A stretch of DNA of 64,000 nucleotides from contig OZ244956.1 in NCBI GenBank assembly GCA_965222505.1, forward strand, positions 788,581 to 852,580, read 5' to 3'. Source of the DNA: Rhodothermales bacterium. GTDB lineage: Bacteria; Bacteroidota; Rhodothermia; Rhodothermales; DATKEJ01. This document shows, piece after piece, positions 17,680 to 63,840 of this stretch. The notes beneath the pieces are model-generated. The model had not been told where the DNA came from. It saw only the letters and a program-made list of their open reading frames with translations, and did not search any database. The position numbers and the translations under genes were made by a program. Every line of letters begins with the position of its first letter. Position 1 is the first letter of the stretch.

Positions 17680-17775
17680 AAATGAAAACGTAGTTCGTAT
17701 TACGTATTGCGTAAGAGAAATCGCACTCATGTTTGAGGGCACCTTTACGCAATACGCGATACGCATTACAGAAAT
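17680..17775 (-). repeat. Structured intercistronic repeat element, copy A (coxA stop to coxC start)
   Basis: + strand: ...cgtattacgtattgcgtaagagaaatcgcactcatgtttgagggcacctttacgcaatacgcgatacgcattac... Arms cgtattgcgtaag / cttacgcaatacg, plus an extra tandem arm copy next to the upstream stop. Confidence 0.6.
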
Positions 17776-21882: not shown

Positions 21883-21924
21883 GGATCGTTCAGGTTGTGC
21901 TATACAAAAAATGGGGTGCCATGA

Positions 21925-22042
21925 TGCGTGTTGCGTGAACTCAGGTTGGCATGTTCTGATAGGTGAACAAGCGTCGGTCCCTCCCGTGTATACGGTCGGT
22001 AATGTATGGACCGTATTCACGCAACACGTATCACGCAACACT
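21925..22042 (-). repeat. Structured intercistronic repeat element, copy C (actF stop to small ORF)
   Basis: + strand arms cgtgttgcgtgaa (21927) / ttcacgcaacacg (22016) plus a tandem tatcacgcaacac next to the actF stop. Shares aaaaatggggtgc...gcgtgttgcgtgaact with copy D. Confidence 0.6.
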
Positions 22043-24599: not shown

Positions 24600-24714
24600 T
24601 TTAATGTGGGTTATGCAAGTAATAAATCGTATGCTCGTATAGTATTTCGTAGTGCGTAAGGGAAGTTGCCCTGATGTGAGAGGGCACCCTTACGCAATAC
24701 GCATTACGCACTAC
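24600..24714 (-). repeat. Structured intercistronic repeat element, copy B (actC stop to actD start)
   Basis: + strand: ...cgtagtgcgtaagggaagttgccctgatgtgagagggcacccttacgcaatacgcattacgcactacg... Around 80% identical to copy A over the core. Confidence 0.6.
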
Positions 24715-26168
24715 GTTTCTGTTTCTGTTTCCGGTGAAGCCAATTCGGCATCGGCACTGTGGCCGTCTCCGTGCTCGTCATAAAAATGCGGGTTGGCTTC
24801 GGGCATCACACCCTTGACCTCGGCGATGGCAACCATCGGCACAAACCGCAGGAAGAGCAGGAACAGGGTCAAAAACAGGCCGAAACTCCCGACGAGCGTC
24901 AGCACGTCCACAATCGTGGGCGAAAAGTAGTCCCAACTCGACGGCAGGTAATCGCGGTGAAGCGATGTTACCGTAATCACGAACCGTTCGAACCACATCC
25001 CGATGTTGACCAAGATCGAGATCACAAACATAAGCGGGATGTTGCGCCGGAACTTCTTGAACCAGAAAAGCTGCGGGGCAAACACGTTGCAGCTAAACAT
25101 CGTCCAGTAGGCCCAGGCATACGGCCCGGTGGCGCGGTTAATGAAGGCATATTGTTCGTAGGTCACGCCGGAGTACCACGCGATGAAAAATTCCGTGATA
25201 TAGGCAAATCCGACGATTGACCCCGTCAGGAGCATGATGATGTTCATCTTCTCCAAATGGTTCAACGTAATCAGGTCCTCAATTTCGTACACCTTCCGGG
25301 CCGTGATCATAAGCGTTTGCACCATGGCAAACCCGGAGAAGATGGCCCCGGCCACAAAGTAGGGTGGGAAAATCGTCGTGTGCCATCCCGGGACGATAGA
25401 CACGGCAAAGTCGAACGACACGACCGAGTGTACAGAAAGCACCAGCGGTGTAGCCAAACCGGCCAGGATGAGATAGGCACGTTCGTAATGCCGCCAGTGC
25501 CGATTGGCACCCGTCCAGCCCAATGCAAGGGCACCCATCACTTTCTGCCGAATTTTGCCTTTGGCGCGGTCACGCAGCGTGGCCCAGTCCGGGATCAAGC
25601 CAACATACCAGAACAGCACCGATACGGTACCGTAGATCGTGACTGCAAACACATCCCACAACAGCGGACTCTTGAACTGCGGCCACATCAGCATCTGGTT
25701 CGGAATGGGCAGCGTCCAGTAGATCACCCAGATCCGTCCGACGTGAATGGTCGGGAACAAGAGCGCACAAACAACGGCAAAGATCGTCATGGCTTCGGCA
25801 GCCCGGTTAATCCCCGTGCGCCACTTCTGCCGGAACAGAAAGAGCACCGCCGAAATCAGCGTGCCCGCGTGGCCGATCCCGACCCAGAACACGAAGTTGA
25901 CGATGGCCCATCCCCAACCGACCGGGTTGTTCAGGCCCCAAACGCCGGTGCCGTTCCAAAACAACCAGGCGATCATGACAATCAGCGTCAGCAACCCGAC
26001 AACGGCCACCCCAAACAACGGGTACCAGAGCTTCGGCGGTTTCTTCTCAGCGTGTTTCGCCACCAGTTCGGTTACATCGTGGAAGGTATGCCCCCCTTCC
26101 ACCAGGGGTGGATCGGAAGCATGTCCGTCGCCGGAGATGCCGAGGTGTTGATCGTGTGTCGTACTCAT
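24711..26168 (-). CDS. actC: Alternative Complex III subunit ActC (NrfD/PsrC-like quinol-interacting membrane subunit)
   Basis: 485 aa polytopic membrane protein; NrfD-family topology. Confidence 0.85.
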
Positions 26169-32732: not shown

Positions 32733-33137
32733 TTACGGGTTCGGAATCACCAGTTCCTGACCAACCTGGATCAGGTCCGGGTTATTGAGTTGGTCCGTAT
32801 TGGCATTGAAGATGGCCATGTACTTCATGGCATCGCCGTAGTAATGCTTGGCAATCTTGCTCAGGGACTCACCGGAGGTAACCGTGTGCTTGTGGTAATA
32901 GTCGGTGTTTTTTACACGGATATCGGCGCCGATATCCGTGGGGCTATTACCGCCAATTTCCTTGATCTTGTCCCAGAGGAGGTTTTTCTCATACGGGGTA
33001 TTCACGTGACCACCAATTTTCAGCTTCCCTTCTACTTCCTTCACGTATCCATCGGTAACGCCAAGTTCTTCGCCCAGGTTGAGCACGGGCTGATATTTTG
33101 CTTGCAGCGACATAGTGTGTTGTTGGTTTTGGTACAA
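32733..33137 (-). CDS. BON-domain plus LysM-domain protein (Kbp/YgaU-like)
   Basis: 134 aa; N-terminal BON-like region (...VKEVEGKLKIGGHV...); C-terminal LysM (HTVTSGESLSKIAKHYYGDAMKYMAIFNANTDQLNNPDLIQVGQELVIP). Confidence 0.7.
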   Translation of the reverse strand: MYQNQQHTMSLQAKYQPVLNLGEELGVTDGYVKEVEGKLKIGGHVNTPYEKNLLWDKIKEIGGNSPTDIGADIRVKNTDYYHKHTVTSGESLSKIAKHYYGDAMKYMAIFNANTDQLNNPDLIQVGQELVIPNP

Positions 33138-33321
33138 TAAATGGGGGTTGCTTCGAACCCTTTGTTCAGCTCAAGCGATAAGCCTATCTCTCACGGTTAA
33201 CCAAAACGTATTCCGTAATTCGAAACGAGCGTAGCGACTAACGAAGTAATTGCGTAAGGATGTTGTACGCAATACTTTCCTGGCGCTACACGTGAGGTCT
33301 CACACAACTTGAGTTACATGT

Positions 33322-37101: not shown

Positions 37102-37220
37102 CAGGTTGTGACAACATAATGGTCAATGGTCAAACGAGCGTAGCGACTAACGTAGTCATTGTCAACGGATGCCGCCCATTGACGCTTGTCGATTGCCCCT
37201 TTTCAATTGACCCTATTCGA

Positions 37221-47632: not shown

Positions 47633-47944
47633 TTACCCCTGGATTTCGGTGATTAACTGAATTTCACGCAAGACGCCCTGCACGCGAAAACATGCTTCAA
47701 ACTCGCCCTCATAGACGTTGGCCTTGCCACGGGTGTGTACCGTCCAGGCATGTTTTTCGGCCTGGGCCGTTGAGCAACCGATCGCTTTCACCAGTTGGAG
47801 GATCACTTCCTCAAAGGTATGAATCTCATCGTTGAAGAGGATGACCCGCCACGGCAGGGCCACTTTTTCCTCGTCTTCGACATCGACCAATACGTCCTGG
47901 TCCGGTTTGGCCGGGGTTTGTAAGCGCGGCCGGTCATCAGCCAT
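47633..47944 (-). CDS. clpS: ATP-dependent Clp protease adaptor ClpS
   Basis: ...[49 protein letters not shown]...; probable start MADDRP. Confidence 0.8.
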
Positions 47945-47983
47945 ACCATATGGATGCGAAGCGGTCCACATAGAAGTATTCAC

Positions 47984-48235
47984 TCAGGCCACCGATTCCA
48001 ATGCGATGGCATAGTCTTCCATGACCGGGTTGGCCAACAGCTTTGCACAGGCCTGCTCGGCAACCTGTTGAGCGGCTTCGCGGCTATCAGCCTCAATCCA
48101 GAGTTCGGCATATTTGCCCATCCGAACCCGTTCCACAGCTCCCATACCCAGGGCATCGAGGGCATGGTGTGTAGCCTTGCCCTGCGGATCCAGAATCGAG
48201 GGCCGCAGGGTAATACAAATGTTCGCTTTGTACAC
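47984..48235 (-). CDS. purS: Phosphoribosylformylglycinamidine synthase subunit PurS; the listed 146-aa ORF is N-terminally over-extended, probable GTG start (VYKANICITLRPSILDPQG...)
   Basis: The C-terminal 83 aa match the PurS fold (...ITLRPSILDPQGKATHHALDALGMGAVERVRMGKYAELWIEAD...). Confidence 0.7.
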   Translation of the reverse strand: MYKANICITLRPSILDPQGKATHHALDALGMGAVERVRMGKYAELWIEADSREAAQQVAEQACAKLLANPVMEDYAIALESVA

Positions 48236-48289
48236 GTTGTATTTGGTGTTTGTTGGTGTGATGATTAAAAATGGGGTGCTGGTATTTAT

Positions 48290-48440
48290 GCAGAGCGTAT
48301 TGCGTGAACTTAGTCCATTATGTTTTACCAAAACAAGTCCCTTTCTGCATTTCCCGAGTATTCGGCTACTGTATCCCGGGCCGAAATTACGCAATACGTT
48401 TCCCGCACAAAAGGGGTCTGACACACACTTGAGTTATTAT
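48290..48440 (-). repeat. Structured intergenic repeat element, copy D (pssA stop to purS start)
   Basis: + strand arms gcgtattgcgtgaact (48295) / aattacgcaatacg (48386). 5' flank aaaaatggggtgc shared with copy C; 3' flank ggtctgacacacacttgagtta shared with the ppk-downstream site near 33280-33300. Confidence 0.55.
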
Positions 48441-48464
48441 AGAAATCAGAGGCTACGTCTCTCC

Positions 48465-49316
48465 TCACTCCACCTCAGCATTCCAAACGGCCTGTCCAAA
48501 CCGCAACACGGCCCGCCCGATGCTGAACAGAATGTAACACATGGCCGAAATAAAGAGGCCAACTTCCTGCAAAAAGACGGTAAGCGTAGCACCAATGAAG
48601 AAAAAAATCACGACCCAGCGATGGGATTTCAAGGCAACCGGCGTCAGTTTGGGAAAGGAATCAAACTGTACATCGGTCAACATCAAGGCCGAGAGGATCA
48701 CCACAAACGGAATCAACACAGACAACCGTCCCAATGCTAGGCCATCAAACCATGAAGGATCCTCAAAGGTTAGAATAAACGCCACCAGCGTACCGGCGGC
48801 AGCCGGAATGGGAAGTCCTTCGAAGTATGGCTTTTTCTCGCCTTCCGACTCTACATTAAACCGGGCCAACCGAACCGCCCCGCAAATGGCCGGTAACGCT
48901 GCAATGAGTATACCCACCGTCCCAAACTGCTCAAAACCGTACTGAAAAATCAAAAACGACGGGGCTACCCCAAAGCTGACCAGGTCACTCAGCGAGTCCA
49001 GTTCAATGCCAAACGCGCTATCGCCCTGCGCCAGACGGGCCATCAAACCATCCAACAGGTCGAAGAATGCGGCCAACACAATTAACCAGGCCGCCCGCGT
49101 GAGGTGCCCCTCGCTGGCCTGAATGATGGAAACGAACCCACTGAGCAGGTTCATCAAGGTAAAAAACGACGGGACGGCAACCCGGCTCCGGCTCGGAACC
49201 TGAGGCGGACGCACCGGGCGCGAATCTCGATAGGCCGCCAGCCGTCGCCGCAGCTTGGGTTTGGACACCCGATGTACGCGGGGTCTCTTTTGATCAGCAG
49301 AATCCGGGACGGACAC
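48465..49316 (-). CDS. pssA: CDP-alcohol phosphatidyltransferase (CDP-diacylglycerol--serine O-phosphatidyltransferase-like)
   Basis: 283 aa; CDP-OH_P_transf motif ...DLLDGLMARLAQGDSAFGIELDSLSDLVSFGVAP... Confidence 0.75.
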   Translation of the reverse strand: MSVPDSADQKRPRVHRVSKPKLRRRLAAYRDSRPVRPPQVPSRSRVAVPSFFTLMNLLSGFVSIIQASEGHLTRAAWLIVLAAFFDLLDGLMARLAQGDSAFGIELDSLSDLVSFGVAPSFLIFQYGFEQFGTVGILIAALPAICGAVRLARFNVESEGEKKPYFEGLPIPAAAGTLVAFILTFEDPSWFDGLALGRLSVLIPFVVILSALMLTDVQFDSFPKLTPVALKSHRWVVIFFFIGATLTVFLQEVGLFISAMCYILFSIGRAVLRFGQAVWNAEVE

Positions 49317-50036: not shown

Positions 50037-50130
50037 ATTATTGGTAATTGGTGATTGGGTACTCTTAAATCATAAATGACAAATCACAAATAAAATAGCG
50101 TTTTCCCATGTTTGCCGATGGGGTCTTGCA

Positions 50131-51495
50131 ATGAAAAATCACGGAACGCCGCCTTTGGACCTTCGTTCAAGCCGCGTTTCTTACCTCCCTGCTATGCCGC
50201 GCGTTTCCTTTCATACCCTGGGCTGTAAACTCAACTACGCCGAGACCTGCACCCTGGCCCATCAGTTTGAAGAACAGGGCTACACGACGGTCGGCTTCGG
50301 CGATCCTGCCGAGATTACGCTCATCAACACCTGCTCGGTTACCGAACAGGCCGAGCAAAAGTGCCGCAATACCATCCGCCGTGCCCTGCGGGCCAACCCG
50401 GAGGCCTTCGTCATTGTGACGGGTTGCTATGCCCAACTGCATCCGGAAACCCTGGCCGCTCTCCCCGGTGTCGATGCCGTGCTGGGCGCATCCGAAAAAT
50501 TCCGGCTGTTCCATCTGATCGATTCCTTTTCGAAAACCGAAAACACACAGGTGGCCGTCTCTTGTATCGATGAGGCCACCGACTTTGGCCCAGCCTTCTC
50601 GGCAGGGAGCCGGACCCGTGCTTTTCTGAAAGTTCAGGATGGGTGCGATTATACCTGTTCCTTCTGTACCATTCCCCTTGCCCGTGGGGCCAGCCGCTCC
50701 CATCCCATCGACCAGACCCTTGCCCAGGCCCAGCGCCTGGCAGAGCAAGGCTACCGCGAGGTGGTCCTGAGCGGCATCAACATCGGCCTGTATGGACAAG
50801 AACACGGGGCAAGTTTTTATGACCTGATCCGGTGCATGGATCGGGTGGACGGCATCGAGCGGTTTCGGATTTCGTCGATTGAGCCGAACCTGCTCTCGGA
50901 TGAGATCATTGATTTTGTAGCGGACTCGGACAAATTCCAGCCCCACTTCCACATCCCGTTGCAAAGCGGGGATGATGAGGTGCTGGGCAAAATGCGGCGG
51001 CGTTACCGGCGCGGCCTGTACACGGAACGCATCACCCGCATCAAACGGCTGATGCCGCAGGCCTGCATCGGCGTGGATGTAATCGTGGGCTTTCCGGCTG
51101 AGACCAATACCGCGTTTATGAACACCTGGGCATACCTCGCTGACCTCCCGGCCTCGTACCTGCATGTGTTCACCTACTCCGAACGCCCGGACACCGCCGC
51201 CGTCAACCAGTTGGAGCACATGGGCGGTCCGTCCGTCCCCAAGGCCGAGCGCAGTCGACGCAGCAAACGGCTGCGCCTGCTCTCCGAGCAAAAACGGCTG
51301 GCGTTCTACGCCGAACACCTCGGCCAAACCCGCCCCGTCCTGTGGGAGCACACCGCCCGTACCAATGGCGCCATGACCGGCTTTACGGACAACTATATCA
51401 AGGTCGAAACCAACTATGACCCGGAACGTGCTGGATGCATCGAACCCGTTCCCCTTTGTAAACTGACCGAAGCCGGTACGGTGCGTGCTGCCTAG
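50131..51495 (+). CDS. mtaB: Radical-SAM methylthiotransferase, MtaB-like (tRNA t6A37 methylthiotransferase); MiaB/RimO family
   Basis: ...VSFHTLGCKLNYAETC... (N-terminal UPF0004 Cys triad), radical-SAM CDYTCSFC, C-terminal TRAM-like region. Confidence 0.7.
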   Translation: MKNHGTPPLDLRSSRVSYLPAMPRVSFHTLGCKLNYAETCTLAHQFEEQGYTTVGFGDPAEITLINTCSVTEQAEQKCRNTIRRALRANPEAFVIVTGCYAQLHPETLAALPGVDAVLGASEKFRLFHLIDSFSKTENTQVAVSCIDEATDFGPAFSAGSRTRAFLKVQDGCDYTCSFCTIPLARGASRSHPIDQTLAQAQRLAEQGYREVVLSGINIGLYGQEHGASFYDLIRCMDRVDGIERFRISSIEPNLLSDEIIDFVADSDKFQPHFHIPLQSGDDEVLGKMRRRYRRGLYTERITRIKRLMPQACIGVDVIVGFPAETNTAFMNTWAYLADLPASYLHVFTYSERPDTAAVNQLEHMGGPSVPKAERSRRSKRLRLLSEQKRLAFYAEHLGQTRPVLWEHTARTNGAMTGFTDNYIKVETNYDPERAGCIEPVPLCKLTEAGTVRAA

Positions 51496-51711
51496 GCCGT
51501 GTTGACAATTAAGCGTAAACGTCGTTTTTGGCCCGTTTCGGGCCGATAACCGGCCCTCTTGGCCCACTCTGCGTTGCATTTCTCCTGAAATGCGATCCCC
51601 GATGATGGATCGGGGGCATTGCAGTCAAAATGCGCCTTGATTGGGCCTGGGCCGATCCACGGCCCTAACGACCTCAAAACCGCCTGTTGATCTAATGGTC
51701 AACACGGCCTA

Positions 51712-53931
51712 GTGTTTAACTTTTCTTTTAACTTTTCTTCCGCGGTGTTCAACCAGCGTCTTTTTTTCACCCTTGTCTTTGGTGCAACCCTGGTTGCACC
51801 GGTGCTTGCACAAGATGCTCCAGACCGTCCTCGTGTGGGCCTCGCCCTGAGCGGCGGAGGCGTACGGGGGTTTGCCCACGTCGGGGTCCTCAAGGTCCTG
51901 GAAGAGATCAACATGCCCATCGATTACATCGCCGGGACCAGCATGGGCGGCATCATCGGGGCACTCTACGCCTCCGGCTACCGGGCCGATGCGCTGGAAG
52001 AACTGGTATTGACCACCGACTGGTCCCGCTTCTTCGCCGATGCCCCCGCCCGACGCTACCTCGATATGGATGCCAAACGCCGCGACGGTCGGTTCATCGG
52101 CTCCCTTCCCATTTACAACCGAACCCGCCTCGTCCTGCCCTCTGGCCTGATTGCCGGGCAACGCATTGCCGAGTTTATGGCCCGGCTCACGTGGCAGGTC
52201 CATCACATCGAGGATTTCACCCAGCTCCCCATTCCATTCGTCTGTGTAGCAACTGACATTGAAACCGGCAAAGCCGTGCCCTTACGGGGGGGCTACCTGC
52301 CCCAGGCCCTTCGCGCCAGCATGGCTGTGCCGTCTGTGTTCACGCCGGTCAAACTGGGCAATCAACTGCTGGTAGACGGCGGCGTTGCCCGAAATCTGCC
52401 CGCACAGGATGCCCACGACCTTGGGGCCGATATCGTGATCGGGGTGGATGTTTCTGCCCCACTTCGTACCGACGCGGAAATCCGCTCCTTTCTGGACATC
52501 CTGGACCAGACCGTCGGCTTTTACATGCAACTTTCCACTGAAGCCCAGCAGCGTTTGGTGGATCACCTGATCCTGCCCGAAGTGGCCGGGTATGGCCTGT
52601 TTGACCTGGATCAAACCCAGGAGATGATCCAACAGGGCGAAGCTGCTGCCCGCCGCATCCTCCCTGAACTGAAAGCCCTGGCCGATTCCCTCAACAGGGA
52701 CGCTGGACCGGCACCGGTCTACATTGCGGCCCCACTGGATTCCGTGTACGTCACCGATCTGCGCATCGAGGGTCTTCGGAATACGCCACGCCGCCTGGTC
52801 GAATCCCAATTAGACCTGACCCTCCCGATGTGGCTCACTGCCGATGCCCTCAAAGACGAAATGGACCGGGTGTACAGCACCCAATTCTTCGAGCGCGTGA
52901 CGTACCAACTCGAACCCATGACAAACGGCACCCGGTTGGTGATTCATGCGCTGGAACGCCAGGATGACCTGCTCCGCTTCGGGTTTCGTTACGACCCTGA
53001 GGAAGGCCCTGCCCTTCTCTTGAATGCCACCTACAGTAACCTGCTTGCCCGGGGGTCGCTGCTACTCAATGAAGTGCGTTTGGGCGAACACATCACGGCT
53101 TCATCCGAGTACCTGGTCGGGCTGGGCCGGCGAGACCGACTGGGGTGGAGTACCCGTGCAGGGATACACATCCAGAACTACAAAACCCCTGCTACGTCAG
53201 TCTTGCCATTTGTTGAATTTCGGACATCTGTCTATTCGCTGGAATCAAGCGTGGCTACCTATTTCTCGACCACCGGCCTATACGGCATCGGTATTCGAGA
53301 AGAGTTGAGTACCATCAAGCCGAAAGTGGCCCCACCGGACGTCGAAGTGGAGCACACGCACCTGCAAATGTTGCACAACACGTTCTGGGTGGATTCCATT
53401 GACCGGGCAGTGTATCCACGCCGGGGTCATTTTTTGTACTGGCGCAACGAAGGCACCACAGCAGCTTTGGGGAGCGACCTGACGTTCTCGCAGCATCGGC
53501 TCCTCTGGCGCGGCGCATTTCCCTCGTCCATCGACCCCAACCTGAGTGTACATACCGGCTTACAATGGGGGGCGACCTTCGGAGACCCCGTGCCAGTGCA
53601 TTACCGCTTCCGACTTGGCGGCATGAATACCTCAGATTTTACGCTGGGTCAGTTTGTTGGCCTGGAAGTGGGTGATCGCACAGGCCGGTTCATGAAAGTG
53701 CTATCGCTGGCCCTGCAGGCCGAGGTGATCAAAGACCGGTTTTTGCTGCTTCACGCGAACGTCGGCAACACCACCGAAACCTGGAACTGGGCATTGTCCG
53801 AAGAGGAATTTGAATGGGGATTTGGCCTCACGCTCGGGGCGCTGACGCGCATCGGCCCACTCGAAGCCACCTTCGCCACCAGCTCCCGCAAAGAATCCCT
53901 CCTGAACATCAACGTAGGCTTCCGGTTCTAG
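51712..53931 (+). CDS. Patatin-like phospholipase fused to a C-terminal Omp85/surface-antigen beta-barrel (PlpD-like, type Vd secretion architecture)
   Basis: 739 aa; signal peptide; GLALSGGGVRGFAHVGVL plus GTSMGG (patatin G-x-S-x-G) and a DGG region; C-terminal barrel ending ...NVGFRF. Confidence 0.8.
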   Translation: MFNFSFNFSSAVFNQRLFFTLVFGATLVAPVLAQDAPDRPRVGLALSGGGVRGFAHVGVLKVLEEINMPIDYIAGTSMGGIIGALYASGYRADALEELVLTTDWSRFFADAPARRYLDMDAKRRDGRFIGSLPIYNRTRLVLPSGLIAGQRIAEFMARLTWQVHHIEDFTQLPIPFVCVATDIETGKAVPLRGGYLPQALRASMAVPSVFTPVKLGNQLLVDGGVARNLPAQDAHDLGADIVIGVDVSAPLRTDAEIRSFLDILDQTVGFYMQLSTEAQQRLVDHLILPEVAGYGLFDLDQTQEMIQQGEAAARRILPELKALADSLNRDAGPAPVYIAAPLDSVYVTDLRIEGLRNTPRRLVESQLDLTLPMWLTADALKDEMDRVYSTQFFERVTYQLEPMTNGTRLVIHALERQDDLLRFGFRYDPEEGPALLLNATYSNLLARGSLLLNEVRLGEHITASSEYLVGLGRRDRLGWSTRAGIHIQNYKTPATSVLPFVEFRTSVYSLESSVATYFSTTGLYGIGIREELSTIKPKVAPPDVEVEHTHLQMLHNTFWVDSIDRAVYPRRGHFLYWRNEGTTAALGSDLTFSQHRLLWRGAFPSSIDPNLSVHTGLQWGATFGDPVPVHYRFRLGGMNTSDFTLGQFVGLEVGDRTGRFMKVLSLALQAEVIKDRFLLLHANVGNTTETWNWALSEEEFEWGFGLTLGALTRIGPLEATFATSSRKESLLNINVGFRF

Positions 53932-53932
53932 T

Positions 53933-55414
53933 CATTAGTTTAGCGGTTTCAGGCAGCTCTTGTCTTGTTAGAGGCCGCAGAACCGCGATGTTGTCTATGT
54001 TTTTCTGCCAAAGTGGACCAAAAACCCACTTTGGGTAAAATTCCACACTGGTACAGATGCTCTCTGGTGATCCAGGTCACATCATGAAGGCTCGGCCCCT
54101 GTTTACTCAGGTACCAAGGCCGATAACGCGTCAAGCTCACCTCGGCTTCGGTCTGCTCAAGCCGACGGGCCAGAAACAGCACCTGGGCTGCGGTGACGAT
54201 CAAGCGAAAGGCATTGATTGAGACAATGCGACGATACCGCCGACACCGATCCTGGCCCAAGCCCAGGCTCTGACGCGCCTGCCAGATCGTGATCTCAATC
54301 GACCACCGGGCCTTGTATTCATCCAACACCTGTTCAGCATCCAGATTCAGCGCCGTTGTGAAGTAAGCCTGGATCCAGCGATCGCGTTTCCATTTACGGC
54401 TAGCTTGCCGCCAGGCGAGACGGCGTACCAAGACCACTTGCAGATCCACTTCCGGCATCACACTGTGCCAGCGACACCGAAGCAGATACACCTCAACGCC
54501 GGGTTGATGCTCACGCCAGTCGTCTTCGGCCAGCGCCAACTGTTCAGGCGTTCCCAAACGAGGCCCTTTCTTGGCCTTGCGACCCCGACCACGACGCGGC
54601 ACAGGCCGTGCGTACAACGGACTGTTCTTCGACAAACGACCGATCACATCGACTTGACCGGGCAGATCACGCAAAAACTGCTTCGTGGCATAATTGCCGT
54701 CTTGAACTGATAAAACGGCTCTATCGGTGCCCACGACGCCGACAACGCGGTCGAGCATGGCCCGTGCCAACGCACTCGGGCTCTGATAGACCACATCAAG
54801 GGCCTGGTCCGAACGCACATACAACGCCAGACCGATGGGCACCGAGATGTACTGGTCAGGCCAGGGCTTGAGTCGAATCAACATTTCAGCTATGATGAAC
54901 TGCAAGCCCCACAGCGTACGATATTCCTGGCGCGCCGTGCCGGCCCCGTTGCGAAAAGCGGCACAGCCGTCAATCGATCGGCCGGTTTTCTTACATGTAG
55001 TCTCGTCAAAGCGGACACGTACCGGTTCATGTTCGGGCACAAAACGGGCCGCGATGGTGATCACGGTGATCCAGAGCCAGTCGAGTTTGTCATAGAGTGG
55101 ACCACCGATGAAGACATAGAAACGGGTAAAGTGCTTCACGGCCGTGGCCCCACTACGCCAGAGGTAGTTGGCAATGGTGTGTCGACTCGGCGACAGACAG
55201 AATCCGAGTGCGAGTATCAGAAAGCTTTGCCGCGCACGTTGGTTGAACAGGTCGGCAAACTCGGTGTCAAGGAACGAACCAAAGTCAGTACGTATAAACG
55301 AATCCACGGCGGTGCTCTGAAGGTGAGGTTGAAGGATGACAACTCCCTCACTTCTCAAGTGCCGTCGTGTTTCTTTTTTACATCAAAGCAGCGCCATTTT
55401 TCGCTAAACTAATG
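53933..55414 (-). mobile_element. IS4/IS701-like insertion sequence (about 1.48 kb) with 13-bp perfect terminal inverted repeats CATTAGTTTAGCG and a 6-bp target-site duplication TCTAGT
   Basis: Left end tctagt|cattagtttagcg (53927-53945). Right end cgctaaactaatg|tctagt (55402-55420). Single DDE transposase ORF inside. Confidence 0.85.
53949..55358 (-). CDS. DDE transposase (IS4/IS701 family)
   Basis: 469 aa; typical IS4-superfamily length and composition, with motifs such as ...VLSVQDGNYATKQF... and a C-terminal ...YKARWSIE... region. Confidence 0.8.
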   Translation of the reverse strand: MRSEGVVILQPHLQSTAVDSFIRTDFGSFLDTEFADLFNQRARQSFLILALGFCLSPSRHTIANYLWRSGATAVKHFTRFYVFIGGPLYDKLDWLWITVITIAARFVPEHEPVRVRFDETTCKKTGRSIDGCAAFRNGAGTARQEYRTLWGLQFIIAEMLIRLKPWPDQYISVPIGLALYVRSDQALDVVYQSPSALARAMLDRVVGVVGTDRAVLSVQDGNYATKQFLRDLPGQVDVIGRLSKNSPLYARPVPRRGRGRKAKKGPRLGTPEQLALAEDDWREHQPGVEVYLLRCRWHSVMPEVDLQVVLVRRLAWRQASRKWKRDRWIQAYFTTALNLDAEQVLDEYKARWSIEITIWQARQSLGLGQDRCRRYRRIVSINAFRLIVTAAQVLFLARRLEQTEAEVSLTRYRPWYLSKQGPSLHDVTWITREHLYQCGILPKVGFWSTLAEKHRQHRGSAASNKTRAA

Positions 55415-55605
55415 TCTAGTGCACCGGCTAGCTTATTCTGCCGGGTTTCGCTCGGCCCTGTAGGCTGTGTTTGCTCTCTTGCTGGTCGGCAAGGTGAGTA
55501 CGGCAAAACCATCCTTGCACCACAAACACAAAGCTGTCCCCTCTTCGGTTGAGGAGGGGACAGCGCTATCACGTTAACCGAAAGGCCATGATGGATCAAA
55601 GGTGG

Positions 55606-62967: not shown

Positions 62968-63045
62968 CCTGGGTAAGATACGGGTTATCGGCCACCTAAA
63001 CTACAGGTCTGTTTTACACTTCGGGGTTCGATCACACAACGTGTA

Positions 63046-63840
63046 TCACGCATCACGCCCCATCCATTGGCGCATCAAGATGCCTCCCGCTACCGAAACA
63101 TTAAGGGACTCTACCCCTTGCTGTGCCCCATCTCCCATTCCGATGCATACCCGACGATCCAGTACCGCCGCCACCTCCGGCGAGAGGCCGTGGGCTTCGC
63201 TACCCAACACCAGCACCGACGGTTTCACAGGGTTCCAGTACCGCGCCTCCTGACCAGACAAATCAGCCCCGTAGCACGTAAACCCGGCCACACACAATGT
63301 GCGTAGCGCCTCGTCCAGCGCGCCGACCGGCACCAGCGCGAGGTCCCACAGCCCTCCCATCGTGGCCCGAACCACCTTCGGACTGTACCCATCCACGGTC
63401 CCTGCCCCCAGCAACACCGCATCCACCCCAAACCAGGCTGCCGTTCGGATAAGGGTACCCACATTACCGGGGTCCTGTACGGCATCCAGGGCCAAAACCG
63501 TCAACCGGTCTGCAATGCCTTCCACGGTGTGTTTCGGCATACGCGCCACGGCCAAAATGCCCTGATGCGTCTGGACGTCCGTTAACTGTGCCATAACAGT
63601 TGCTTCGGCCTGATACACCGGTACAGCCGTATCAGAAAGCAACCGGGCCCAGCCGGGGTCTGTCAATCGGTCAGCGGAGACCACGATCATTTCCAGAGGG
63701 GCCCCGGCCTGAAGCGCCGAGGCTACAGCCCGAACCCCCTCCACGAGAAAGGCCCGCTGCCGATACCGGTACTTTTTCTGGGCCAGTGCCGCAACCTCTT
63801 TTTGACGGCGACGGGTGAGTGCAAGGACAGGATTGGACAT
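63046..63840 (-). CDS. SpoU/TrmH-family RNA 2'-O-methyltransferase
   Basis: 264 aa; SPOUT motifs ...LVLGSEAHGLS... and ...LNVSVAGGILM... Confidence 0.75.
   Translation of the reverse strand: MSNPVLALTRRRQKEVAALAQKKYRYRQRAFLVEGVRAVASALQAGAPLEMIVVSADRLTDPGWARLLSDTAVPVYQAEATVMAQLTDVQTHQGILAVARMPKHTVEGIADRLTVLALDAVQDPGNVGTLIRTAAWFGVDAVLLGAGTVDGYSPKVVRATMGGLWDLALVPVGALDEALRTLCVAGFTCYGADLSGQEARYWNPVKPSVLVLGSEAHGLSPEVAAVLDRRVCIGMGDGAQQGVESLNVSVAGGILMRQWMGRDA

Follow-up and report, generated by a model that had tools for sequence, protein, structure and literature searches.

A heptamer-built palindrome in the pssA-purS spacer of a Rhodothermales bacterium and its similarity to REP elements

The pssA-purS spacer

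The 64,000-nt stretch of DNA analysed here (the window) comes from the 5.34 Mb chromosome of a Rhodothermales bacterium (assembly GCA_965222505.1, contig OZ244956.1, positions 788,581 to 852,580), and the element in question is an inverted repeat, termed copy D, located in the 228-nt minus-strand spacer between the upstream gene pssA and the downstream gene purS (Table 1). The genes clpS and hprK come after this pair in the gene order. The true start of pssA is probably near 49154, since the database version of the protein has 229 aa. A first-pass annotation of the window had placed in this spacer a member of a repeat family previously noticed in the respiratory act-cox operon, with arms around a loop of roughly 75 nt, and a palindrome with such arms and a 74-nt internal module is indeed present. 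It is built around a perfect 10-bp core, formed by CGTATTGCGT and ACGCAATACG with 83 nt between them, from which the predicted stem extends outward to reach ~20 bp. The predicted folding energy is -37.4 kcal/mol for the mRNA strand (z = -2.9) and -34.5 kcal/mol for the antisense strand (z = -4.2). The distance from the element to the upstream pssA stop codon is 63 nt.

The arms of copy D and its relatives are short tandem arrays of the heptamer YACGNWW, of which TACGCAA is the most frequent form, followed by TACGCAT, TACGTTT, TACGAAA and CACGTTT. With one mismatch or fewer, TACGCAATACG is matched 12 times in the window, compared with 0.69 +/- 0.81 times in shuffled sequences, and none of 100 shuffles reached 12, so that the motif is far above chance. 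These matches fall in five spacers (copies A to E), on one common transcribed strand, corresponding to five copies per 64 kb. Tandem Repeats Finder (TRF) reports a period of 7 with 3.4-3.7 copies in A and B; copy D has only ~2 units per arm, and the arrays among the loci listed from other genomes (see below) reach 13 units. The heptamer structure of the arms, copy E, and the many-phylum palindrome with a fixed arm order are new relative to the first-pass annotation.

Copies and shared modules in the window

Copies A and B are short-loop palindromes with 82% identity over 73 nt, their 32-nt loops included, and the TAG stop codon of ActC falls inside the outermost heptamer unit of copy B. Copy D has its closest relative in the long-loop palindrome copy C, with which it is homologous from end to end. 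The left arm of copy D is identical to the copy C arm at 21926-21941 at 15 of 16 positions, and both copies carry an internal mini-hairpin, CCGU-AUAC-ACGG in C and CCGA-AUAC-UCGG in D, which differs by one compensatory pair change. The flanks are shared as well, in agreement with the first-pass annotation, which had noted a 5' flank nearly identical to that of copy C and a 3' flank recurring downstream of the ppk stop. The 5' flank AAAAATGGGGTGC is an exact 13-mer that occurs within the window only at 48267-48279 and 21907-21919, and the adjoining GCGTRTTGCGTGAACT matches copy C at 15 of 16 positions. The 3' flank GGTCTGACACACACTTGAGTTA (48415-48436) returns as GGTCTCACACAACTTGAGTTA at 33296-33316, 5 nt after the ppk stop, and these two copies of module M1 (21-22 nt) differ by one substitution and one 1-nt gap. 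The core of module M3, CCCCATTT, sits 33 nt upstream of the purS GTG, and CCCCATTT(A/T)T is common to C, D and E, 25-33 nt ahead of the downstream start codon. The Bacteroidetes-type promoter motif TAnnTTTG was not found in M3, which was inspected by eye only. Thus the family is modular and present at operon-internal sites just after stop codons, not only in act-cox, as had been proposed. Copy D itself is a genuine, partly decayed long-loop member of the family and has the appearance of a decaying or composite one.

Predicted stem-loop stabilities in the window range from -33 to -54 kcal/mol, and folding z-scores from -2.9 to -5.7, with the exception of the composite copy E; all five elements lie in spacers. 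A further, degenerate copy suspected at 63030-63060 did not hold up: the candidate (63027-63057) comprises two ATCACGC units overlapping the 3' end and stop of a SpoU methylase gene, its partner arm is poor, and the surrounding 150-nt region folds no better than shuffled sequence (z = -0.56).

Table 1. Positions of the palindromes, their modules, and neighbouring or other features in the window
Feature	Position	Strand	Description
purS, downstream gene	47984-48235	minus	GTG start; Pfam PF02700, E = 7.9e-29
Copy D, module M3	48267-48279	minus	GCACCCCATTTTT on mRNA strand; 31 nt upstream of purS GTG
Copy D, inverted repeat	48293-48401		between pssA and purS
Copy D, left arm (+ strand)	48293-48310		GAGCGTATTGCGTGAACT; 3' arm in minus-strand mRNA; ~2 heptamer units
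Copy D, arm sequence	48295-48310		GCGTATTGCGTGAACT
Copy D, perfect core	48296-48305; 48389-48398		CGTATTGCGT; ACGCAATACG
Copy D, internal module	48311-48384		74 nt; homologous to inside of copy C
Copy D, mini-hairpin	48354-48365		CCGAGTATTCGG
Copy D, right arm (+ strand)	48385-48401		AATTACGCAATACGTTT; 5' arm in mRNA; ~2 heptamer units
Copy D, arm sequence	48385-48398		AATTACGCAATACG
Copy D, module M1	48415-48436	minus	TAACTCAAGTGTGTGTCAGACC on mRNA strand; 28 nt after pssA stop
pssA, upstream gene	48465-49316	minus	CDP-alcohol phosphatidyltransferase; PF01066
Copy A	17686-17769		short-loop heptamer palindrome in the COX1-COX3 spacer; COX1 stop at 5 nt
Copy C	21907-22041		long-loop palindrome (21924-22041) plus M3, between ActF and a 115-aa gene; ActF stop at 1 nt
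Copy C, mini-hairpin	21984-21995		CCGTGTATACGG
Copy B	24642-24718		short-loop palindrome between ActC and ActD; 0 nt after stop
Copy E	33135-33316		composite, between ppk and a LysM-domain gene
Copy E, M3-like part	33135-33146		CCCCCATTTATT
Copy E, extra arm-type array	33204-33220		
Copy E, short hairpin	33249-33273		ATTGCGTA, 9 nt, TACGCAAT
Copy E, module M1	33296-33316		
AAACAG hexamer repeat	24715-24731		actC 3' end
40-nt module	33223-33262; 37132-37171		AAACGAGCGTAGCGACTAACG...; ppk 3' spacer and aminotransferase 3' spacer
GACCATT run	37118-37133		x2.3
ATTGGTA and AAATCAC arrays	50040-50091		x2.7 and x3.6; divergent spacer of psd and a radical-SAM (MiaB-like) gene
MITE-like element	51492-51712		221 bp; between radical-SAM gene and patatin/Omp85 gene
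Insertion sequence	53928-55419		18-nt terminal inverted repeats CTAGTCATTAGTTTAGCG
DDE_Tnp_1 transposase	53949-55358	minus	469 aa

Heptamer palindromes in other genomes

A scan of 185,579 species-representative genomes with the pattern TTACGCAATACGYNWYMCGCA, seeded with one unit type, matched at least 120 loci, compared with ~17 expected by chance as estimated from the information content of the pattern. These loci span more than 10 phyla, mostly Chloroflexota, Calditrichota and Planctomycetota. By record title, the matches listed comprise 71 from Chloroflexota, 14 from Calditrichota, 10 from Planctomycetota, 6 from Bacteroidota/Rhodothermia, 4 from Armatimonadota, 3 each from Omnitrophota and Kiritimatiellales/Pontiella, 2 from Deltaproteobacteria, one each from Lentisphaerae, Atribacterota, Gemmatimonadaceae and Priestia, and 3 from unclassified bacterium; one Calditrichaceae metagenome-assembled genome (MAG) alone supplied 13 of the loci listed. 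Most matches are not due to chance, since 102 of the 124 matches listed belong to arrays of at least 4 units or face an inverted array no more than 160 nt away. Viral contigs gave no match to the 21-mer TTACGCAATACGCAATACGCA, and the single metagenome match to the C/D-type 3' module (GTTCACGCAAYACG...CACCCCATTT) lies inside a 550-aa open reading frame (ORF) and was set aside as a chance match.

Several regularities were derived from the loci listed together with the window. Where two arrays neighbour each other within 200 nt, the arm order (TTGCGTA)n-loop-(TACGCAA)n was found 77 times and the reverse order 4 times, all five window copies following the prevailing order. Both orders form the same helix, and a palindrome is the same read from either strand, so neither stability nor direction of transcription can explain this polarity, which points to descent from a single type of element or to a factor that recognises the sequence specifically. 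The rare reverse order is found as single units in a distant relative (L127, 16730-16800), downstream of COX4, with GACTTACGCAA and TTGCGTAAGTC 46 nt apart. Pairing between arms is imperfect: at the variable unit positions the arms match at a frequency of 0.771, compared with 0.674 +/- 0.016 in shuffled arm pairs.

The hairpins also have a characteristic position. Gene orientation in the MAG loci was taken from a longest-ORF heuristic. Among the 45 hairpins that could be classified in this way, 38 are flanked by co-directional genes, 3 by convergent and 4 by divergent ones. The median distance from the upstream stop to the hairpin start is 5 nt, with ~50 nt from there to the following start codon; for 23 of 46 hairpins the distance from the stop falls between -25 and +15 nt. 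Solo arrays, which lack a partner, show no orientation preference relative to genes (21 vs 21). Element and arm lengths vary widely, and loops are 1-119 nt long. Two loop families recur in the Calditrichaceae MAG, ATRGAYYGGC (in both orientations) and AYYGGnnAnnnCACAA; the presence of loop families within one genome indicates that whole hairpins propagate, not units alone.

The same sites in relatives

Comparison with related genomes revealed that the palindromes are present at some of these sites and absent at others. In the closest relative found (L121, PssA 85% identical), the pssA-purS spacer is 46 nt long and contains an unrelated small GC hairpin, and in three more distant relatives (L122-124) it is 59 nt long and free of the element; the alignments end exactly at the gene ends. 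At site A, two relatives with COX3 at least 90% identical (L129 and L130) have spacers of 30 and 43 nt and likewise lack the element. A 4.5 Mb genome with the same act-cox gene order (L126, ActF 60% identical) is compact at the junctions that measure 113, 160 and 117 nt in the window: they are reduced there to 2 nt, an overlap and 11 nt. In the window, the long act-cox and pssA-purS spacers are recent insertions at gene junctions that the relatives keep tight.

The relative L128, which is 97.4% identical to the window over ActC-ActF, carries the copy B element, within which the only differences are an extra TGCGTAT in the window, an extra TACGCAA in L128, and one loop substitution. These whole-unit differences are direct evidence of whole-unit slippage. 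At site C, the spacer of the same relative (2760-2846) measures 87 nt. Its palindrome, GTAATTCGTA / TACGAATTAC, is short and differs from that of the window, and the ~75-nt inner module common to copies C and D of the window is missing, GGCACCCCAT and the leader being kept. Identity between the window (21884-22042) and L128 falls from 97.4% in ActC-ActF to 87.7% in the downstream genes exactly at the copy C spacer, suggesting a recombination breakpoint at the palindrome. A separate difference concerns the 3' end of actC, where the hexamer AAACAG (mRNA strand) is present three times in the window and twice in L128; this 6-nt indel adds or removes a Glu-Thr pair right before the actC stop, which lies in the first copy B unit.

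A REP-like interpretation

Taken together, these elements probably represent a dispersed palindrome resembling the repetitive extragenic palindrome (REP), built of heptamer repeats and transcribed as an intercistronic stem-loop. The family behaves like REPs in being non-coding, in being gained and lost spacer by spacer, and in changing length by replication slippage of whole 7-nt units, its members settling mainly between co-directional genes, directly behind the upstream stop. Copies located inside operons should be transcribed, folding into a strong stem-loop. By analogy with REPs, such an intercistronic hairpin may block 3'-to-5' exonucleases and so protect the upstream mRNA. A hairpin within ~15 nt of the stop codon, as in copies A, B and C, may in addition hinder terminating ribosomes and lower the output of the upstream gene, as has been reported for REPs of E. 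coli. Translation of the downstream gene, which for copies C, D and E is preceded by an unstructured A/C-rich leader of its own, may likewise be uncoupled from that of the upstream gene. The effect is most likely generic, as for REPs, rather than a switch specific to purS or respiration, and translational coupling and mRNA stability of the respiratory genes have probably been changed in this lineage.

The likeness to the REP, BIME and REPIN elements of Proteobacteria extends to several features: short imperfect palindromes are dispersed in spacers, for the most part at gene 3' ends and inside operons; they are gained and lost between relatives; they are transcribed as stem-loops, as we infer for the elements described here; and their loops and stems are family-specific within a genome. 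According to PMC12306157, many REPs lie within 15 nt of a stop codon, and E. coli REPs at this position lower translation of the upstream gene. REPs number tens to hundreds per genome and are mobilised by RAYT (Y1) transposases, whose genes usually have REPs on their flanks. The position at gene 3' ends, often within ~15 nt of the stop, is shared by copies A, B and C (5, 0 and 1 nt). The heptamer palindromes differ from REPs in that their arms are tandem arrays changing by whole units, with loops of up to ~120 nt, and in that REPs are species-specific, whereas the YACGNWW unit and the arm order are shared across phyla. In the REP super-families described so far, one end bears a conserved tag, GTAG or CGTC, that stays unpaired (PMC3733652). 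Membership of the GTAG-tagged class was rejected: GTAG occurs only in the outer units of A and B, as the unit variants CGTAGTT and CGTAGTG, and is absent in C and D.

Several observations weigh against the REP-like interpretation. The GTAG or CGTC tag is not consistent among the window copies. A Pfam scan of ~50 window ORFs contained no Y1_Tnp (RAYT) domain, and the only transposase in the window belongs to a DDE insertion sequence (IS) with unrelated ends, no RAYT or other dedicated enzyme being found there. Folded as RNA, the sense and antisense strands do not differ in stability (16 vs 26, Wilcoxon p = 0.42), and G-U pairs give no strand-specific signal (100 vs 105); these equal folds show no sign of RNA-level selection and are equally compatible with a DNA-level role or with no function. 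Copy D, with ~2 units per arm, a long inner module and a distance of 63 nt from the stop, is the weakest candidate for hairpin effects of the kind described above, and stalling of translation by this copy is unlikely. The preference for co-directional junctions depends in part on the heuristic gene orientation mentioned above.

A bolder proposal is that the YACGNWW palindrome constitutes a distinct, cross-phylum REP-like class, whose fixed arm order and invariant ACG core reflect recognition by a putative conserved protein, either a mobilising enzyme or a factor that binds RNA or DNA. We put this forward only tentatively, and regard it as doubtful. If true, it would imply a shared 'code' in Chloroflexota, Planctomycetota, Calditrichota, Rhodothermia and others, marking or processing operon junctions. 

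Should the observed pattern hold genome-wide, it would define a searchable rule, (NNNCGTR)n - loop - (YACGNNN)n just after the stop codon, for a repeat class common to many little-studied phyla, about whose REPs, terminators and operon punctuation hardly anything is known. Annotators could then recognise such spacers rather than call spurious ORFs, the arrays being free of stop codons, and the whole-unit evolution of the arrays is a possible marker for typing closely related strains. The 77-to-4 polarity poses a concrete question that goes beyond hairpin stability.

Comparison with other heptanucleotide repeats

Tandem 7-nt units in non-coding DNA, changing in length by slippage, are also characteristic of the short tandemly repeated repetitive (STRR) and long simple sequence repeat (LSSR) families. 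The cyanobacterial STRR heptanucleotide repeats were reportedly described by Mazel in 1990. The units of STRR1-3 are CCCCAGT, TTGGTCA and CAACAGT. The heptamer palindromes differ from STRR and LSSR repeats in unit sequence, and the accessible descriptions of the latter do not include obligatory inverted pairs, fixed polarity or placement after stop codons. A further parallel is the intergenic tandem heptamer TAACTGA, which occurs as direct repeats in marine Beggiatoaceae, Cyanobacteria and some Bacteroidetes, and whose scattered occurrence among phyla suggests that it spread horizontally or is bound by a factor common to its hosts (PMC4679880). The TAACTGA repeats are found in 169 direct sets vs 1 inverted set, just upstream of start codons (PMC4679880), whereas arrays of the type found in the window pair as palindromes just after stop codons. 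The literature search retrieved no paper with a 14-mer of the array, and none linking heptanucleotide repeats to Rhodothermus, Salinibacter, Anaerolinea or Caldithrix; a cross-phylum heptamer palindrome with fixed polarity thus seems undescribed in the literature searched.

Alternative explanations

The polarity and the conservation of the unit could also be accounted for by a sequence-specific protein-binding array, in which YACG, spaced at 7 nt, is recognised by a conserved factor that binds DNA or RNA and uses the palindromes as its platforms; such a factor might regulate genes, belong to the nucleoid or mobilise the element. One heptamer and one arm order are retained across more than 10 phyla at 77 to 4, for which thermodynamics offers no explanation; the ACG core is invariant and positions 5-7 are variable; the arms are only 77% complementary at variable positions, so that conservation favours the unit pattern over the pairing; and partnerless solo arrays are common. 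Nonetheless, we consider this explanation unlikely: no candidate protein was found, the contexts are unrelated housekeeping operons, and the element is dispensable at orthologous sites, while the invariance of ACG is partly forced by the detection pattern and the copies could owe their fixed arm order simply to descent from one ancestor. At the other extreme, the arrays might be functionless and immobile, the heptanucleotide repeats arising by polymerase slippage and the inverted pairs by chance or template switching. Among the long simple repeats of prokaryotes, heptamers are the most frequent according to Mrazek 2007, as summarised in PMC4679880, and other heptamer arrays occur in the window and beside TACGCAA arrays in the loci; close relatives are separated by unit-sized indels, and folding shows no strand bias. 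Slippage does not explain the 77-to-4 polarity, the occurrence of one unit in distant phyla, the non-repeat loops and flanks common to copies within one genome, or the median distance of 5 nt after stop codons, and a purely neutral origin appears, if anything, slightly less likely than a binding array.

The suggestion of the first-pass annotation that the repeats are REP-like, MITE-like or regulatory RNA stands in its REP-like part, with gain and loss at orthologous sites and whole-unit arm changes; the other two parts fared less well. Miniature inverted-repeat transposable elements (MITEs) such as Correia, RUP and ERIC resemble the heptamer palindromes in being small and non-coding, with inverted ends and insertion into operons. 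MITEs are uniform in length, have target-site duplications and a cognate IS, and are co-transcribed in operons. A non-autonomous DNA transposon, with the heptamer arms as terminal inverted repeats moved by a DDE or HUH transposase, would fit the inverted termini, the presence or absence at orthologous sites, the internal sequence common to A/B and to C/D, and the presence in the window of a DDE IS and another MITE-like element. Yet the uniform length, target-site duplication and cognate IS of MITEs were all not found for the heptamer palindromes: copies A, B, C and D lack flanking target-site duplications, elements and arms vary widely in length, with loops of 1-119 nt, and the IS ends CTAGTCATTAGTTTAGCG are unrelated, for which reason a link between the family and this IS was rejected. 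In addition, genes between closely spaced hairpins look by eye like ordinary housekeeping genes, and there were no viral-contig matches, making a MITE improbable. The data exclude a classical terminator, and it is very improbable that the element terminates the pssA transcript or, as an attenuator, sets how much transcription continues into purS. The strong hairpin downstream of a stop codon, the GUUUUCAUUUAUU that follows copy A, and the extended stem of copy C ending 4 nt before a U6 run are reminiscent of a terminator, but a consensus scan around copy D found neither promoter nor terminator, no terminator-like site being present in 47900-48600. The U-run of copy D lies 14 nt beyond the stem, and 42 hairpins show no downstream U enrichment (mean T 4.17 per 15 nt, both directions). 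A Shine-Dalgarno sequence and start codon often directly follow the hairpins, and copies occur inside the act-cox operon, which is compact and by arrangement co-transcribed in relatives. Equally excluded is a conserved cis-regulatory RNA for purS, and a gene-specific riboswitch or leader, or a product of the 53-aa antisense ORF at 48271-48432, is the least probable explanation, to be given hardly any weight. The element does precede purS, and the C/D mini-hairpin has its one compensatory change, but the element is absent from the pssA-purS spacer in 4 of 4 relatives, identical element types precede unrelated genes in unrelated operons, the sense strand folds no better, and there is no Rfam match even at E = 10: Rfam 15 at gathering score gave 0 matches in the whole window, with only chance-level values at C and D (E = 4.8 and 9.5). 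The Cys-rich ORF (+ strand) has its ATG inside AAAAATGGGGTGC, in the A-rich context AAAAATGG common to C and D, and the two copies differ by an in-frame length of 9 nt; the C and D peptides diverge after ~10 residues and alignment gaps break the frame, so it is probably not coding.

Other repeats in the window and in the matched loci

Unit variants AAACGTG and CACGTTT contain GTGAAAC and GTTTCAC, which are half-sites of the parS consensus TGTTTCACGTGAAACA (L007, 5825-5894; L054, 3065-3139; L112, 7891-7950). The full parS is not recreated by the prevailing arm order.

In addition to the palindromes, the window contains other repeats. Two further period-7 arrays, ATTGGTA and AAATCAC, lie side by side in the spacer between psd and the radical-SAM gene and are not mutually complementary. 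The two copies of the 40-nt AAACGAGCGTAGCGACTAACG module are 85% identical, and the second adjoins the GACCATT heptamer run. The 221-bp MITE-like element has 20-nt ends, CTAGGCCGTGTTGACAATTA and TAATGGTCAACACGGCCTAG, which are 95% complementary and begin with CTAG, as the IS ends do. Nesting of TACGCAA arrays with other heptamers (GGGATCA, CACGTTT, CACGCAT, GGTACGA and GAGCAGC) is seen in the Chloroflexia MAGs L011 (2904-3034), L034, L074, L082 and L100, where some spacers consist almost entirely of heptamer runs.

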